Source: a virus (Duplodnaviria > Heunggongvirae > Uroviricota > Caudoviricetes). Taken from it: a stretch of 5,921 nt of DNA. The stretch covers positions 1-5,921 of the IMG/VR virus record IMGVR_UViG_2651869750_000011. One strand, written 5' to 3'. The translations under genes were made by a program, and so were the position numbers. Shown here one piece after another: positions 1-5,921 of the stretch. The notes beneath the pieces are model-generated. The model saw only the letters and a program-made list of their open reading frames with translations. It did not search any database and was not told the origin of the DNA. Positions within the stretch are counted from its first letter, which is position 1. Each line of letters begins with the position of its first letter.

Positions 1-1158
1 GGCCCACTGGCAAAACTGCGTCTTGGTTTTTCCCTCCTGACCGGATCATTGAATGTTGTCAGGGTTCTGCCTGCATTATGGGGAATGGTGACGGGTTCCA
101 TTTCGTTACTGGGAGGCGCTATCGGGGCGCTGTTCAGTCCGGTCGGATTGATTGCTGCTGCGTTTGTGGCTGCGGCGGTTCTCATCTGGAAATACTGGGA
201 ACCCATCAAGGCGTTTTATGCAGGGGTGTTCAGTGGGATTATGGAGCGACTGGCCCCGTTGCGCGAAACCTTTGAACGGTTTGGCCCTGTTTTTGACGCA
301 ATCGGAAGCGGGATCAGCCAGGTGTTTAACTGGTTTAAATCGCTGCTGTCACCGATGGAGTCCAGCAAGGAAACGCTGGATAAATGTACCAGTGCTGGCG
401 AGATATTCGGTAACGTTCTTGGCGGTGCGTTACAGCTTGTTCTGACACCTGCAAAAATGCTACTGGATACGCTGGCGTGGATACTTGAAAAACTCGGTGT
501 GCTTCCGGATGAAGCGGAAAGGGCGCGCAAGAAAATCGAAGACGCACAGCGTGCGGCCATTCTTCAGGACAAGGTTGCCTTGCTTCAGGGGGACCTGGCG
601 AAAATCAATCTGCCGAAGCCTGTGGAAAATGGCAATGGCACCGGAGGTGATAAACCCAAAGACAACAAACCGCTCACAGACAGCAATACCGGTACGCTAC
701 GCAGACTCAGCAAAATTGCTGATAACACAGGTAAGCTGGTTGATGAGACGAAAAAACGCATTGGCCCCGGCGATATTGTCTTTAAGAACCTGCCCCGCGC
801 ACTTGCTGTTCGTGGGGAGTGGCAGGAGCGGAAGATTGCGCAGGTCAGTAAGCCTGCTTCCGCAATCAACATCACACCCGTGGTCCCGACTCCTCTGCCT
901 CCGGCGCTGGTCCCTGTTGTTGCGGCCAGCTCCCGCCCGGTGGCGGAGGCCATACGATCGCCAGTGGCATCAGTTCCTGCAACTTCCCGTAACCGGGAGC
1001 CTGTTGTCTCCGGATTTGGCGGTGAAATTCATGTTCATCTGCATAACGTTGTTACGCAGAATCCCCGCGAACTGGCGAAACTGGTCGGTGAAATGGTCAG
1101 GGCAGAATTGGAACGACGCGACCGTGCCGGACGTGGCAGTTTTTACGATAAAGATTGA
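1..1158 (+). CDS. Tail tape measure protein, C-terminal portion (P2 gpT-like); 5' end lies upstream of the window
   Basis: The frame-1 ORF is open from base 1 with no in-frame stop before the listed start at 49, so the gene is 5'-truncated by the window. The product has hydrophobic helices near its start, a Pro/Ala/Val-rich stretch (TPVVPTPLPPALVPVVAASSRP) and a charged C-terminus (ELERRDRAGRGSFYDKD). It is followed immediately by a gpU-like gene, as in P2 (T then U). Family assignment is from recalled similarity, not a search. Confidence 0.72.
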   Translation, partial: GPLAKLRLGFSLLTGSLNVVRVLPALWGMVTGSISLLGGAIGALFSPVGLIAAAFVAAAVLIWKYWEPIKAFYAGVFSGIMERLAPLRETFERFGPVFDAIGSGISQVFNWFKSLLSPMESSKETLDKCTSAGEIFGNVLGGALQLVLTPAKMLLDTLAWILEKLGVLPDEAERARKKIEDAQRAAILQDKVALLQGDLAKINLPKPVENGNGTGGDKPKDNKPLTDSNTGTLRRLSKIADNTGKLVDETKKRIGPGDIVFKNLPRALAVRGEWQERKIAQVSKPASAINITPVVPTPLPPALVPVVAASSRPVAEAIRSPVASVPATSRNREPVVSGFGGEIHVHLHNVVTQNPRELAKLVGEMVRAELERRDRAGRGSFYDKD

Positions 1159-1170
1159 GGAGTCATGGCC

Positions 1171-1659
1171 ATGATGATGATCTACGGCATGTTTGTTTTT
1201 GAGCTGCGCACATTGCCGCATCAGCAGTTACAGCAAAATAAAAGCTGGCGGCATGTGAAAAATGAACGCGTTAACCGTTCAGCAAGCTGGCAGTATATCG
1301 GGGCAGGCGATGATCGCATCGTGCTTTCTGGTGTGCTTTATCCTGAAATCACAGGTGGCGAAGTGTCGCTGTCGCTGCTGACCACGCAGGCGTATACAGG
1401 ACGCCCCTGGCCTCTGATTGATGGCGTCGGACAGATTTACGGCATGTATGTACTGACTGAAACGAATACGACCCGCTCCGAGTTTGATCGCTACGGTAAG
1501 GCGAAAAAGATAGAATTTTCACTGACTCTTGAACGCTGTGATGAGGATTTGCGGGAGCGCCTGCAATCCTCATCGTTCAGTGATATGCTGTCCGGCTTCA
1601 AAGATAAGGTCACATCATCCCTTAACAGCGCGGCCAGCTCCGTTAAAGGGCTGTTTTGA
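1171..1659 (+). CDS. Phage tail protein U (P2 gpU-like)
   Basis: The product (MMMIYGMFVFELRTLPHQQLQQNKSWRHVKNERVNRSASWQYIGAGDD...) matches the remembered P2 gpU N-terminus and length (about 160 aa). GAGGAG at 1157-1162 sits 8 nt before the ATG at 1171; an ATG at 1165 is an alternative start but is too close to the RBS. The tape measure stop (TGA 1156-1158) is 12 nt upstream. Confidence 0.85.
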   Translation: MMMIYGMFVFELRTLPHQQLQQNKSWRHVKNERVNRSASWQYIGAGDDRIVLSGVLYPEITGGEVSLSLLTTQAYTGRPWPLIDGVGQIYGMYVLTETNTTRSEFDRYGKAKKIEFSLTLERCDEDLRERLQSSSFSDMLSGFKDKVTSSLNSAASSVKGLF

Positions 1660-1666
1660 TTAACGC

Positions 1667-1696
1667 AAAACCGCTAATGGTCAGATTAGCGGTTTT
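1667..1696. terminator. Bidirectional intrinsic terminator hairpin between the convergent gpU and invertase genes
   Basis: Perfect inverted repeat AAAACCGCTAAT (1667-1678) / ATTAGCGGTTTT (1685-1696) with a 6-nt loop GGTCAG. It is followed by a T-rich run on the + strand (TTTTCATTTTCC) and, read on the minus strand, by TTTTGCGTTAATC. It lies 8 nt after the gpU stop and overlaps the invertase stop codon (1686-1688). Confidence 0.6.
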
Positions 1697-2285
1697 CATT
1701 TTCCTGAGTCTGCCTGGTTGTTTCTTCAGCCTGTATATCGCCTACAGGGTGATAACGATAAATCGTCGATATGCCGATGTCGTAAATGATCGCCAGTTGT
1801 TTCCTGTCATGACCGTTTTTAATCAGCCTCGCTATTTGCTCGTGTTGTTCTTTTGTCAACTTCGGGCGACGTCCGCCAATGCGTCCTTGTGCGCGTGCTG
1901 CTGCCAGCCCGGCCAGTGTACGCTCTACAATTAATTCACGTTCCATTTCGGCTAAAGCTCCCATGACGTGAAAAAAGAAACGCCCCATGGGTGTTGATGT
2001 GTCAATGCTGTCCGTTAGACTACGGAAATTAACACCTTTTTCCCGCAATTCCTCAATAAGCGTGATCAGGTGTTTCATACTTCTGCCCAGTCTGTCCAGC
2101 TTCCAGACAACCAGCGTATCTCCTTCTGATAGCGTTCTGAGCAGTTTTTTCAATCCCGGTCTGGCTGATTTCGTTCCGCTGATTTTATCTTCAAAAATCA
2201 GTTCACATCCTGCGCACTCCAGCGCGTTACGCTGCAATTCTGTATTCTGGTCATTTGTTGATACGCGGACATAGCCAATAAGCAT
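1686..2285 (-). CDS. pin: Serine site-specific DNA invertase (Hin/Gin/Pin/Cin family resolvase-invertase)
   Basis: The 199-aa product begins MLIGYVRVSTNDQNT (catalytic Ser in the YVRVST motif) and carries VVWKLDRLGRSMKHL, GRFFFHVMGALAEMERELIVERT and GRIGGRRPKL plus a C-terminal helix-turn-helix region. These are the hallmarks of the Gin/Pin/Hin/Cin invertases. An AGGGGA Shine-Dalgarno lies 6 nt before the ATG (minus strand). The symbol is a family-level guess; closest remembered match is E. coli e14 Pin. Confidence 0.9.
   Translation of the reverse strand: MLIGYVRVSTNDQNTELQRNALECAGCELIFEDKISGTKSARPGLKKLLRTLSEGDTLVVWKLDRLGRSMKHLITLIEELREKGVNFRSLTDSIDTSTPMGRFFFHVMGALAEMERELIVERTLAGLAAARAQGRIGGRRPKLTKEQHEQIARLIKNGHDRKQLAIIYDIGISTIYRYHPVGDIQAEETTRQTQENENR
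2179..2201. promoter_or_regulatory. Palindrome inside the invertase 5' coding region; candidate recombinational enhancer (Fis-binding) element
   Basis: CTGATTTT-ATCTTCA-AAAATCAG is a perfect 8-bp inverted repeat with a 7-bp spacer. It lies 84-106 bp inside the invertase ORF and about 160 bp from the nearer crossover site. In Hin and Gin systems the Fis-dependent enhancer sits in the 5' part of the invertase gene. Positional inference only. Confidence 0.25.
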
Positions 2286-2340
2286 GATGGATCCCCTGAA
2301 TAAAAACCGGGGATGATGCCAGTTAGCCGTAATCTCTGCA

Positions 2341-2366
2341 TTTTCTTAAACGTTGGTTTGGGAGAA
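2341..2366. repeat. Crossover site (gix/hix/pix-like), invertase-proximal end of the invertible segment
   Basis: TTTTCTTAAACG-TT-GGTTTGGGAGAA is an imperfect 12-2-12 dyad resembling the Hin-family half-site consensus TTATCAAAAACC. Its reverse complement matches the site at 4238-4263 in 13 of the 14 positions covering the inner half plus central dinucleotide. It lies 56 bp upstream of the invertase start. Confidence 0.7.
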
Positions 2367-2885
2367 GGTGCTCCAGCTATTGGCGTTCCGTTCTTCTGGC
2401 CGTCCGCAGCAATGCCAGATACCGTAATCGATAGCTGGTCCAGCATGGTGTTTTTGAAGTTCAACGGCGCGAAATTCTCTGCCACTGATTACCCTGTGCT
2501 GGCGAAAGTGTTTCCGGCGCTGGCATTACCTGACGCACGCGGTGATTTCATTCGTATCTGGGATGACGGACGCGGGATTGATGTCGGACGTACCCTACTT
2601 TCAGGGCAATCACACACAATTATGGATCATGCACACAATATGGAATTGTGGACGGGGGACGGGCTTGTCGCAGGAAGTACACGGGAAGGAGTAAACCCAG
2701 GAATACTGGCTACATATGGTGACGGGGGAATAGTTAAAACGGACGAACCCGGTCTTAGGGTGCCTTCCTCACTACGAGCTATTAGCTCTCGTAGCGTTAA
2801 ACGTTATGGTGAAATTAGTGGAAATGTAGGTACAGAAACCCGCCCACGAAATATTGCATTTAACTTTCTAGTGAGGGCTAAATAA
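2355..2885 (+). CDS. Alternative tail-fibre C-terminal variable domain cassette (silent orientation; no start of its own; Mu S/P1 S-type receptor-binding domain)
   Basis: The frame is open from the crossover site, reading GLGEGAPAIGVPFFWPSAAMPDTVID...NGAKFSATDYPVLAKVFPALALPDARGDFIRIWDDGRGID...DHAHN. This carries the GxPxxWP / aFSaxeYPxLA / LPDxRGxFIRgWDdGRGiD motifs remembered from Mu S and P1 S C-termini. Its stop TAA (2883-2885) overlaps the next ATG (TAATG). The 14 codons upstream of the site in the listed ORF (from 2313) are probably not a real start. Confidence 0.75.
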   Translation, partial: GLGEGAPAIGVPFFWPSAAMPDTVIDSWSSMVFLKFNGAKFSATDYPVLAKVFPALALPDARGDFIRIWDDGRGIDVGRTLLSGQSHTIMDHAHNMELWTGDGLVAGSTREGVNPGILATYGDGGIVKTDEPGLRVPSSLRAISSRSVKRYGEISGNVGTETRPRNIAFNFLVRAK

Positions 2886-3478
2886 TGAAACCTGTTTTTG
2901 ATGAAAATGGGCTGGCTACAGTACCGGGTAATATGCGTTGTTTTTATTATGAGGCAGTTACGTATGAATATACTGGCTGGTCTGATGAATATATTAATAC
3001 TGGCGTAAGTATGCCCGCTTGTTCCACTGGTATTGACCCGGGCGAATACATTCCGGGAAGAGTGGCAGTATTTACGGGTAAGGGATGGAGCCATGAAGAA
3101 GACCACCGCAATGAGACTGTTTACTCAATCGAAAATGGCGCAGCTGTTACAGTGGATTATATCGGTGCCATCAAAGACGGTTATGTCACGCTTTCACCGT
3201 TAACGCCATACGATAAATGGGATGGTGAGAAATGGGTGACGGATACCGAGGCACAGCATAGCGCCGCACTAGACGCGGCAGAAGTAAAGCGCCAGTCGCT
3301 GATTGATGCTGCAATGGCTTCCATCAGTCTGATTCAACTGAAATTACAGGCCGTGCGGAAGCTGACGCAGCCAGAAAACACCCGACTTAACGCTGTGCTG
3401 GATTATATTGACGCGGTGACGGCAACAGATACCAGCACCGCACCGGATGTCATCTGGCCTGAACTGCCGGAGGCGTAG
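2885..3478 (+). CDS. Tail fibre assembly protein (Tfa / Mu U-like chaperone), silent-orientation cassette
   Basis: 197 aa, translationally coupled to the upstream fibre cassette (TAATG overlap; GAGGG RBS at 2873-2877). The C-terminus (LDYIDAVTATDTSTAPDVIWPELPEA) is the conserved tail-fibre-assembly C-terminal motif. It converges on, and overlaps by 29 bp, the 3' end of the opposite-strand chaperone gene. Confidence 0.8.
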   Translation: MKPVFDENGLATVPGNMRCFYYEAVTYEYTGWSDEYINTGVSMPACSTGIDPGEYIPGRVAVFTGKGWSHEEDHRNETVYSIENGAAVTVDYIGAIKDGYVTLSPLTPYDKWDGEKWVTDTEAQHSAALDAAEVKRQSLIDAAMASISLIQLKLQAVRKLTQPENTRLNAVLDYIDAVTATDTSTAPDVIWPELPEA

Positions 3479-3890
3479 GCCATTCAATATCTGGCGCACC
3501 GGAAGTATCGACCAGTTCCAGTGCGTCCAGATAATCCAGCCACAAATTATATTGCACCAGTTCCTCACCTTTCAGGCGACCAATCGCCGCTTTACCAGGC
3601 CATTGCTTACTGTTTATGTATTCGTTGACCTGATTAATCAATTGCTGCTTTTTCAGTTCGGCTGCGGCAATTTGTTCCTCATGAGTTGGCGGTGGAATAT
3701 CAATCCATGCAGGCATTCCGTCGATGACACCTCTGTATTTTCCTTCTGGTGCTTCCTTCATAAATTCGGCAGCAACAGTGTCGTCAATTTCGATTCCATC
3801 ATCGGGCCATTCGCCGGATTCCTGATAAGCGATTTTAAGCTCCACAGGGAAAAACGCATTTTTATCGGCACTGAAAATATATTTCTGCAT
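3450..3890 (-). CDS. Tail fibre assembly protein (Tfa / P2 gpG / Mu U-like chaperone), currently expressed cassette
   Basis: 146 aa, starting 2 nt after the fibre gene stop, with an AGGA RBS 8 nt upstream. The C-terminus (LWLDYLDALELVDTSGAPDIEWPTPP) is the conserved chaperone motif. Confidence 0.85.
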   Translation of the reverse strand: MQKYIFSADKNAFFPVELKIAYQESGEWPDDGIEIDDTVAAEFMKEAPEGKYRGVIDGMPAWIDIPPPTHEEQIAAAELKKQQLINQVNEYINSKQWPGKAAIGRLKGEELVQYNLWLDYLDALELVDTSGAPDIEWPTPPAVQAR

Positions 3891-3892
3891 TT

Positions 3893-5383
3893 CTACCGTC
3901 CTATCGAAATATAACTGAATCTGTATTGCTGTGAGATATCACTGGTTGCCACACGCCACGCTGAATTACTGATATGTTCAAAATTTACAGACAAAACCTG
4001 CGGGGCAGGAATCGACGGGTCTGACTGAACGGCATCAGACATAACACTGACTGAAACCATCGGCTGATTAGGGAATGGTATAGGGAAGTGTCCACTGATA
4101 AAGCGGGTCGTGTTTCCTGCAAAAGTGCCAAACTGAACAATATATCCACCTGGTAGCCTGAACCATCCCGAACCAGAAGCGAATGCTCCCATATCCGGTA
4201 TCTGATTATCTCCTGTGCCCACATTCCGTTTTGCCGCTTCTCCTAAACCAAGGTAATCAAGAACTCCCTGAGTGCTGGTTTTACCAAGAATGGCACGTCC
4301 AACACTTGTCAACGCGGTTAACGCGGCACGATCTGCCCCTGTAAAATATGGGAGTTTATCTGCTGATGTAGCAAGCTCCGCCAGCGCCGTCAGGGTGGCA
4401 TCCTTCGGTTGCTTACCCGCAAGCGCGTTAGTCATGGTGGTCGCAAAATTCGGGTCATTGCCCAGCGCCGCAGCCAGTTCGTTCAGCGTGTTCAGTGCAT
4501 CAGGTGACGAATCTACAAGTGCGGCAATCGCAGCCATAACGAAAGCCGTGCTTGCGATCTGGGTACTATTAGTCCCCTGTGGCGCTGTTGGTGTTGTTGG
4601 CGTTCCGGTCAGTGCCGGGCTGTTTAATGGTGCTTTCTTGTTCGTTTCATCCATTACCGCCTTAACAGCTTTTGGTGTCGCTGCCAGCGTTTCAGACGTG
4701 CTGTTCGTGGCGCTACTGAGCTGAACAATCCCTTTTTGTGTAGTGGTGGCGTTCTGGGCGGTATATTTCCCGTTAGCCAGGTCATATGCAGCCTTAACCG
4801 CTTTCGGTGTTGCGGCCAGTGTTTCTGATTCACTGTTAATTGCACTGCTTAACTGAGTAAAACCTTTTACGGTCAGCGAGGCGTCCGGGTGACGTCGTGA
4901 CTGTTCGTGCTCTGATATTTTATCATCCACATATTTGCGGGTTGCCAGAACCACAGACGGGTCGATTTTCAGCGTGATAGCTTCGGTGTTCGTGACAACC
5001 AGAATCATGCGGATAGTCTGGGTGCGTCCACTGCCTTCCTGCAACTGCGGTTTGTACGTTTCCGGGCAGTTTGCCACCGCAATGAGTACACCTTCATCAT
5101 CATAAAGACCAATCTCACGGATCCAGAATCCTCCCTCGTTTTCAGGGATGATTTGCTCCGCAATAATCTGGCTCTGATTGTTAGGGTCAACACTCAGAAG
5201 ATTCAGCGGTGCAATGCGTTTCTGGTTAATCAGTTTTGTTTGTGCAGGGTCTGGTGTTGGTAACACACCATTTGCATCACCAACGGCCATTTGCGTCAGA
5301 TTCAGCTTACTGCCGAGCATCGTCGCGTTAGCCAGTCGTGCCGCGCCCTGATTAGTCAGAATGGCGTAGTATTTCACTGTCAT
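3893..5383 (-). CDS. Tail fibre protein (P2 gpH-like constant N-terminal 378 aa fused to a 118-aa variable C-terminus encoded inside the invertible segment)
   Basis: 496 aa. The N-terminal region (AVGDANGVLP..., GGFWIREIGLYDDEGVLIAVAN, YVDDKISEHEQSRRHPDASLTVKGFTQLSSA..SETLAATPKAVKA repeats) matches what I recall of P2 gpH. The ORF crosses the crossover site at 4238-4263 at the sequence ...VLDYL/GLGE.... Its start overlaps the gpI-like stop (ATGA at 5380-5383). Confidence 0.9.
   Translation of the reverse strand: MTVKYYAILTNQGAARLANATMLGSKLNLTQMAVGDANGVLPTPDPAQTKLINQKRIAPLNLLSVDPNNQSQIIAEQIIPENEGGFWIREIGLYDDEGVLIAVANCPETYKPQLQEGSGRTQTIRMILVVTNTEAITLKIDPSVVLATRKYVDDKISEHEQSRRHPDASLTVKGFTQLSSAINSESETLAATPKAVKAAYDLANGKYTAQNATTTQKGIVQLSSATNSTSETLAATPKAVKAVMDETNKKAPLNSPALTGTPTTPTAPQGTNSTQIASTAFVMAAIAALVDSSPDALNTLNELAAALGNDPNFATTMTNALAGKQPKDATLTALAELATSADKLPYFTGADRAALTALTSVGRAILGKTSTQGVLDYLGLGEAAKRNVGTGDNQIPDMGAFASGSGWFRLPGGYIVQFGTFAGNTTRFISGHFPIPFPNQPMVSVSVMSDAVQSDPSIPAPQVLSVNFEHISNSAWRVATSDISQQYRFSYISIGR
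4238..4263. repeat. Crossover site (gix/hix/pix-like) inside the tail fibre gene; distal end of the invertible segment
   Basis: TTCTCCTAAACC-AA-GGTAATCAAGAA on the + strand. The outer half read on the minus strand is TTCTTGATTACC, matching the remembered hix half-site TTCTTGAAAACC at 10 of 12 positions. The inner half matches the inner half of the 2341-2366 site at 11 of 12 positions. The site is embedded in the codons for VLDYLGLGE. Confidence 0.7.
4659..4858. repeat. Two copies of an approximately 68-bp direct repeat, 132 bp apart, inside the tail fibre gene
   Basis: GCCTTAACAGCTTTTGGTGTCGCTGCCAGCGTTTCAGA... (from 4659) and GCCTTAACCGCTTTCGGTGTTGCGGCCAGTGTTTCTGA... (from 4791) encode the repeated peptide QLSSA(I/T)NS(E/T)SETLAATPKAVKA. 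The spacing is in frame (44 codons). Confidence 0.6.
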
Positions 5384-5921
5384 GCGTTTACTCTCAGATT
5401 ATCAATTAAATGAATGGCCGGGGCAGGGAAATAATCCCCTTCGACAATAATGGACTCCGGGGTGTAGGGATAAACCGTCAGGGCATCGCCGTGATAGCAT
5501 CCCGTACCAACGAAAATCTTTCCGTTCACACTCAGGCTGATCGCCAGCCCCGTCAGATGGCGACTTACTGGTTTTGCATCCGCAATAAGGCGCTCAAGTT
5601 CCTGATACATTTCATCGGTGATGCCCTGATCAAGTACTCCGACAACAATGCGAAATGTTCCCGGCTCCTCGTTGAGTTGCCACCACTCCTTTACTTCAAT
5701 CAGGTAGCCGAGAGGCTCCACGGCTCTTCGCAGTGCGCTGATGGTCCCTTTGTGTCGGTGTATCAGCCATGCATCACGAATCACCTGTCGCTTTGTCTCT
5801 TCCGGCCAGTTGCGATCCCAGTGGTCAACGGAAAATGCCCAGGCGAGATAAGGCAGCAGATGCACCGGGCAGGTGTCCGGCGACCACAGCGTGTTGAGGT
5901 CTACCGGGATGTCTGTAATGC
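5380..5921 (-). CDS. Baseplate assembly protein (P2 gpI-like), 5'-partial; N-terminus lies beyond the window end
   Basis: The minus-strand frame stays open from 5865 to the window edge (…ITDIPVDLNTLWSPDTCPVHLLPYLAWAF…), so the listed start at 5865 is a GTG inside a longer ORF. The product resembles the P2 tail protein I family and is placed directly upstream of, and overlapping, the fibre gene, as I and H are in P2. Confidence 0.78.
   Translation of the reverse strand, partial: ITDIPVDLNTLWSPDTCPVHLLPYLAWAFSVDHWDRNWPEETKRQVIRDAWLIHRHKGTISALRRAVEPLGYLIEVKEWWQLNEEPGTFRIVVGVLDQGITDEMYQELERLIADAKPVSRHLTGLAISLSVNGKIFVGTGCYHGDALTVYPYTPESIIVEGDYFPAPAIHLIDNLRVNA

Follow-up and report, generated by a model that had tools for sequence, protein, structure and literature searches.

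Probable crossover sites of a Pin/Min-type tail-fibre switch in a P88-like Escherichia coli prophage and the asymmetry of their half-sites

Two asymmetric sequences that border a tail-fibre segment of a P88-like prophage very probably serve as crossover sites for a serine-invertase switch of the Pin/Min type (Din family); their asymmetry most likely stems from unequal constraints on the two halves of each site. The DNA that we analyzed (5,921 nt, referred to here as the window) corresponds to the tail region of an E. coli prophage that is P88-like (Xuanwuvirus, Peduoviridae; Table 1). The segment between the two sites follows the plan of the tail-fibre host-range switches (G, C, P, Min): it holds alternative fibre C-termini, each with a chaperone, and each C-terminus is read in frame with the constant N-terminal part across the site. 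The best matches of the window are E. coli prophages and the phages P88, P884B11, and 500465-2, in which the gene order is identical. Since these relatives show the same order, the convergence of the tape measure and gpU genes on the fibre gene is normal for the P88-like group, and we rejected the idea that it is a rearrangement made by the invertase.

Table 1. Features of the 5,921-nt window
Feature	Position (nt)	Strand	Basis or remark
Tape measure C-terminus	49-1158	+	ORF/Pfam
gpU-like tail protein	1165-1659	+	ORF/Pfam
Din-family serine DNA invertase, 199 aa (by sequence)	1686-2285	-	Pfam Resolvase + HTH_7; transcribed away from segment
Predicted recombinational (Fis) enhancer	2196..2267	-	nt 19-90 of invertase gene; homology to P1 cin enhancer
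Left (invertase-proximal) crossover site	2341..2366	-	core 2353-2354; outer half 2341-2352
Invertible segment, ~1.9 kb	2355..4249	.	two alternative fibre C-termini + two cognate assembly chaperones
Silent alternative fibre C-terminus (Sv')	2355..2885	+	in-silico flip; 554-aa fibre
Tail-fibre assembly chaperone for Sv'	2885..3478	+	Pfam Caudo_TAP, 1.5e-24
Tail-fibre assembly chaperone for expressed Sv	3450..3890	-	Pfam Caudo_TAP, 9e-34
Expressed variable C-terminus (Sv), gp53-like C-terminal domain	3893..4250	-	in-frame fusion to Sc; 496-aa product
Right (distal) crossover site, inside tail-fibre gene H	4238..4263	+	core 4250-4251; outer half 4252-4263
Constant N-terminal part (Sc), tail-fibre gene H	4251..5383	-	Pfam Phage_tail_fib + Phage_fiber_2 repeats
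Tail-fibre gene H, complete ORF, 496 aa	3893-5383	-	ORF + Pfam
gpI	5380-5865	-	ORF/Pfam

On the plus strand, the left site (2341-2366) reads TTTTCTTAAACG TT GGTTTGGGAGAA, and the minus strand from 4263 to 4238 gives TTCTTGATTACC TT GGTTTAGGAGAA for the right site. Written from the inner to the outer half, they become TTCTCCCAAACC AA CGTTTAAGAAAA (left site, minus strand) and TTCTCCTAAACC AA GGTAATCAAGAA (right site, plus strand). The coordinates and strings that a preceding sequence-only reading had assigned to them proved exact when the window was read again, and the sites are inverted relative to each other. Its comparison of the halves also holds: the inner halves agree at 11 of 12 positions, the sole difference being a synonymous leucine codon (TTG vs. 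TTA), and the outer halves share 5 of 12 bases. As it had proposed, the central dinucleotides are reverse complementary; read from the inner to the outer half, both cores are AA, non-palindromic, and in inverted orientation. Work on Hin, Gin, and Cin has taught that identical, non-palindromic cores are needed for religation in the inverted configuration.

When up to one mismatch is allowed, the 14-nt motif composed of the inner half plus the core (TTCYCCNAAACCAA) is present exactly twice in the window, on opposite strands and both times at a predicted site; the 0.03 occurrences expected from 200 shuffles exclude that the sites are there by chance. Only two 12-mers of the window score 7/7 against the Din half-site consensus TTCNNNNAAAC, and these are the two inner halves. 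The outer halves reach 6/7 (left) and 5/7 (right); by binomial chance, such scores would arise at a fixed position with probabilities of 0.0013 and 0.013, respectively. We read both as putative half-sites that are degenerate and different from each other, yet recognizable, and not as DNA unrelated to the consensus. A search for a third site or a quasi-site (at most three mismatches to the 14-mer) yielded no credible candidate in the window or upstream of the sheath gene in E. coli strain 12A.

The inner halves had been taken to encode a conserved G-L-G-E junction, and they do so in both fusion products, the native one and that obtained by flipping the segment in silico. The accompanying description, conserved inner halves within coding sequence and divergent outer halves, needs one correction, as only the left outer half is non-coding: it is part of the invertase leader, while the right outer half also lies in coding sequence and specifies (V-)L-D-Y-L in the constant fibre part.

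A natural isomer of the segment is found in E. coli O111:H2 strain 12A. The predicted flipped left junction (a 400-nt query in which 2155-2354 is joined to the reverse complement of 4050-4249) is matched there at 100% over 400 nt, and the window with 2355-4249 flipped aligns end to end to the 12A prophage locus with 3 mismatches in 5,921 nt (at 5836, 5889, and 5908), none of them near the junctions. The fibre gene is in frame in both states, with 496 aa in the native and 554 aa in the flipped orientation, and the 554-aa fibre gene is annotated in strain 12A. By shifting the flip boundaries in silico against the 12A sequence, we bounded the exchange point to the interval from 2352/2353 to 2359/2360 on the left and to 4245-4251 on the right. 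The left stretch, 2353-2359 (TTGGTTT), comprises 7 nt that are common to both sites and includes the predicted TT core. The sequence-only reading had set the exchange at 2353-2354 and 4250-4251; the stretch mapped in the isomer includes both of these cores, and the data thus support an exchange at or adjoining the central dinucleotide that is resolved to 7 nt and not to 2. Homology to unrelated phages stops at 2348 and at 4251 or 4254.

These junctions bear on two other explanations of the locus. One holds that sites and invertase are what is left of a decayed switch at which recombination no longer takes place; the element is a prophage, and its fibre gene is annotated as a pseudogene in some related genomes. 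We consider this very improbable, since a near-identical prophage with precise junctions exists in the opposite orientation (strain 12A), since 124 flipped left junctions stand beside 255 native ones in complete E. coli genomes (at least 80% of the 400-nt query in each case), and since the invertase ORF is uninterrupted and retains every family-invariant residue. On this sequence evidence, the two sites are taken to be functional. The other explanation invokes general homologous recombination between inverted repeats instead of site-specific exchange. Longer inverted repeats do occur in some related prophages, such as the 227-bp repeat of Phi2 in strain EC958 (PMC4134206), but the repeat at the two sites of the window spans 14/15 nt without any extension beyond, far too short for RecA, and the junction coincides with a canonical invertase site that adjoins an invertase gene. 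We therefore rejected this explanation, which we regard as hardly credible.

The 199-aa product of the gene next to the left site matches the Pfam families Resolvase (6e-52) and HTH_7 (1e-12). It shares 83% of its residues with the P88 invertase, 82% with PinE, 75% with Cin, and 73% with Gin, and the column of Ser9 does not vary when it is aligned to the Pin, Cin, Gin, and P88 invertases. Among structures, it matches Gin (3uj3, E 7e-91; 3uj3 and 4m6f both at about 1e-91), and Hin's DNA-binding domain (1hcr) matches its residues 139-185 (E 2e-11). Judged by these similarities, the protein is a member of the Din family (Hin/Gin/Cin/Pin/Min), small serine recombinases in which the N-terminal resolvase domain bears the nucleophilic serine and the C-terminus forms an HTH. 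The proposal that the two sequences are crossover sites of a serine invertase draws support from the match to the consensus, the near-identity to published sites, and the adjacent Din-type invertase gene. The DNA-binding domain at the C-terminus is close to that of the P88 invertase, with few differences over the HTH region; the P88 sites are nonetheless of the gix/bix type with a GA core. Near-identical HTH regions paired with unlike sites would fit with half-site positions 4-7 and the core not being read by the protein. The invertase looks mosaic (C-terminus, 1686-1870 of the window; locus L003, 3822-3847 and 6893-6918), and P88 itself has GA-core sites of the gix/bix type.

The left site starts about 80 nt (81) upstream of the invertase ATG, and its outer half together with the leader resembles the leader of e14 pinE. 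Within the leader (2286-2340, minus strand), a conserved TGGCATCAT/TGGCATGAT block recurs that is also present in the e14 pinE and Mu gin leaders, and a small stem-loop (2324-2305) directly precedes the ribosome-binding site. We found no sigma-70-like promoter for the invertase gene between 1600 and 2500 on either strand, the stretch from the left site to the ATG included. The record of phage P1 annotates the recombinational enhancer at nt 19-90 of cin. The corresponding nucleotides of the invertase gene are 79-85% identical to cin, gin, and pinE, compared to 68-76% for nt 91-420. Across 35 distinct invertase genes, conservation at synonymous sites is slightly raised over the first ~45 nt and over nt 61-105, which is a weak signal, and simple Fis-like patterns gave no decisive match in the enhancer-homologous stretch. 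The homology points to nt 19-90 of the gene as a candidate enhancer. Its distance from the left site would be about 90-160 bp, similar to the spacing of about 100 bp that is reported for hixL (PMC3798978).

We read the sites of Mu, P1, the K-12 element e14, and P88 from their records, and these agree with Table 3 of PMC3241671. Aligned with gix, hix, cix, and pix, the sites of the window have the same 12+2+12 plan; the left site is identical to e14 pixR at 25 of 26 positions. The right site is identical to p15B mixQ''R' at 24 of 26, with the same outer half GGTAATCAAGAA. Each of the published Din sites examined combines one half that scores 7/7 on TTCNNNNAAAC with one weaker half (hixR, 2/7; cixL, 4/7; cixR and mix, 5/7; pix and gix, 6/7). 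Site asymmetry is hence not special to this locus but the norm of the family, in hix, cix, pix, and mix sites as well as in 80 related loci described below. The right outer half differs from the left half of hixL solely by an AA to TT change in the A-tract, and A/T pairs are thereby kept at the contact positions. In Hin-hix structures, the A-tract contact lies in the minor groove.

The closest known systems include those of e14 and p15B. Pin/pix of e14 (E. coli K-12) has an identical inner half (TTCTCCCAAACC) and AA core, an invertase gene that points away from the segment behind a similar leader, and a segment made up of two fibre C-termini and two chaperones; it differs in its host element, which is not a P88/P2-like myovirus prophage as found here, and in the distal outer half, which is GGTTTTCGAGAG in e14 and GGTAATCAAGAA (codons L-D-Y-L) in the window. 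Min/mix of p15B shares the AA core, the G-L-G-E junction, and the exact sequence of the outer half that lies in the constant part of the fibre gene, but it is a shufflon-like system with six sites and many cassettes, whereas the window has two sites only. The sites of prophage Phi2 of E. coli EC958, TCCTCAATTACC TT GGTTTAGGAGAA and GAGAGATAAACG TT GGTTTGGGGGAA, are of the identical asymmetric type; their outer halves and cassettes are different, they lie inside a 227-bp imperfect inverted repeat, and their inversion was directly observed in PacBio reads (PMC4134206). In Phi1 of the same strain, another Din-type switch, about 50% of the PacBio reads were inverted (PMC4134206).

Cin/cix of P1, Gin/gix of Mu, and PinB with the bix-type sites of P88 are further close systems. 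Their invertases are 73-83% identical to that of the window, their sites follow the 12+2+12 plan, and their junction, L-G-L-x-E, is likewise inside the fibre gene. In the gix and P88 sites, however, the core is GA and the inner half is TTCCTGTAAACC; the two gix sites do not differ in sequence; and P1 cin is transcribed towards the segment, with an enhancer about 0.5 kb from cixL. Hin/hix of Salmonella flagellar phase variation has a common inner half and divergent outer halves as well, but it controls a promoter instead of fusing fibre genes, and hin resides inside the invertible segment. The switch in the window is a classic Pin/Min host-range switch, and the asymmetry of its sites is an already known, textbook property of the family.

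A scan of IMG/VR with the invertase yielded 80 loci (84-100% protein identity). In the 75 of these that have enough upstream DNA, the proximal site invariably starts about 80 nt ahead of the invertase ATG. As the inner half itself served as the search pattern for locating the sites, its conservation in this survey (12 distinct inner halves) is partly circular and thus inflated, whereas the figure for the outer halves (37 distinct ones) and the position of the proximal site are unbiased. The AA-core variants of the inner half, TTC[CT]CC[CT]AAACC, all encode G-L-G-E and differ at synonymous positions only, and each related locus uses one core type throughout. The outer halves are informative only at their five core-proximal bases, AAAC[GC]. 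Distal outer halves track the codons of the constant fibre part (e.g., L-D-Y, L-N-Y, L-E-N, L-A-Y); the proximal ones vary among loci and follow the leader type in eight aligned leaders. Phage vB_EcoM-611R5 carries the same cassettes (91-96% identity) between outer halves of the e14 type, with homology that stops at the sites, and the inner half plus core is therefore a common connector between phages. Many of the surveyed loci possess 3-8 sites and resemble Min in this respect.

Many close relatives of the invertase adjoin such multi-site (3-8), Min-like shufflons in L019-L047 and other IMG/VR loci; at the internal sites of these shufflons, outer halves like CGTTTTCATGCT and CGTTTCTATGCC have only the core-proximal CGTTT in common with consensus-type ones. 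The locus in UViG_2690316161_000021 (L017; sites at 1507 and 7936) departs from the usual layout: a Sc-type site, TTCTCCCAAACC AA GGTAATCAAGAA, is oriented directly relative to the proximal site and found 5.7 kb downstream of the invertase, and the fibre gene (7600-9081, minus strand) shares its strand with the tape measure and gpU genes. This element could be a rearranged or hybrid prophage.

Din invertases depend on Fis, on negative supercoiling, and on sites placed in cis in inverted orientation; their enhancer has two Fis sites and usually lies towards the 5' side of the invertase gene. By analogy with the family, an invertase dimer would bind each 26-bp site, and the two dimers would synapse at such an enhancer with Fis bound to it. 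Cleavage of all four strands at the central AA/TT, with a 2-nt stagger, would be followed by a 180-degree turn of one pair of subunits and by religation; this invertasome mechanism is described in PMC3798978. Inversion of 2355-4249 would exchange the final third of the fibre and, along with it, the chaperone, so that a 496-aa fibre and a 554-aa fibre alternate. The inner half plus core would move along with the cassettes; it would have to read G-L-G-E in frame and at the same time be a good half-site, and it may serve as the common connector when cassettes move between phages. The outer halves would stay in place and be shaped by their surroundings, the right one by the L-D-Y-L codons and the left one by the invertase leader, provided that they keep the core-proximal A/T tract for cooperative binding of the dimer. 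The asymmetry is thus most likely a consequence of unequal constraints on the two halves, a reading with which selection on the inversion rate is compatible. Since only the near-identical inner halves are exchanged, the sites would have the same composition in both orientations, and the forward and reverse rates should therefore be alike.

The sequence-only reading had suggested that a weak outer half could tune the inversion frequency. If so, degenerate outer halves would have been selected for lower affinity or synapsis, which would set inversion at a low frequency. One half falls below the consensus in all natural Din sites examined, which could mean that a perfect palindrome is avoided. 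The symmetrized site hixC has a symmetric core in addition, and this would confound comparisons made with it. In the Hin system, hixC is bound more tightly by Hin and inverts 16-fold more slowly than hixL/hixR (PMC2427008); site symmetry can thus alter the rate, but the precedent runs opposite to the notion that a weaker half makes a slower site. Moreover, the outer halves track their local context, be it constant-fibre codons or the leader type, and the 37 context-tracking variants behind the same inner half fit drift under weak constraint. Adaptive tuning therefore appears unlikely, although it retains some plausibility. A little less likely still is that the sub-consensus outer halves, along with the choice of core, keep inversion rare and prevent cross-recombination with other Din-type switches in the chromosome. 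The core is AA here and GA in P88, whose invertase has a nearly identical DNA-binding domain. In genomes with any match to the window, the median number of matching places is 2 and the maximum 12, a count that refers to the whole 5.9-kb window and not to switches specifically.

With sites nearly identical to published ones, the window adds one more case of the classic Pin/Min host-range switch, and little is new about its asymmetry, as this is a textbook property of a known family. The exact junctions are of practical use: they allow the invertible segment to be annotated, let assemblers spot heterogeneity in its orientation, and help to avoid mistaking the silent cassette for a stand-alone gene. 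RefSeq presents this cassette as a separate 'phage tail protein' or 'gp53-like' gene (2313-2885) that begins at an ATG at 2313 and crosses the crossover site; this gene is an annotation artefact of invertible segments. The survey, in turn, portrays the 14-bp inner half plus core as a portable connector that lets receptor-binding cassettes pass from one phage to an unrelated one.

In the phage group that includes the prophage of E. coli 12A (window 1-2285, L004, L088), the sheath-tube-E-T-U block and the genes for invertase and fibre are convergent, and gpD and ogr, located on the far side of the sheath gene, face away from it. Compared with the gene order of P2, the P88-like group has its FI-to-U block inverted; no crossover-like site was found at the ends of this block in the phage group. 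Between the stop codons of the gpU and invertase genes, a perfect 12-bp hairpin (1667-1696) with T and A runs on both flanks resembles a bidirectional terminator. The chaperone genes are convergent, with an overlap of 29 nt (3450-3478). Within them lies an 18-nt inverted repeat (89%; 3397-3414 and 3523-3540), which seems to arise because the two strands encode similar motifs at the protein C-termini (LDYIDAV and LDYLDAL).
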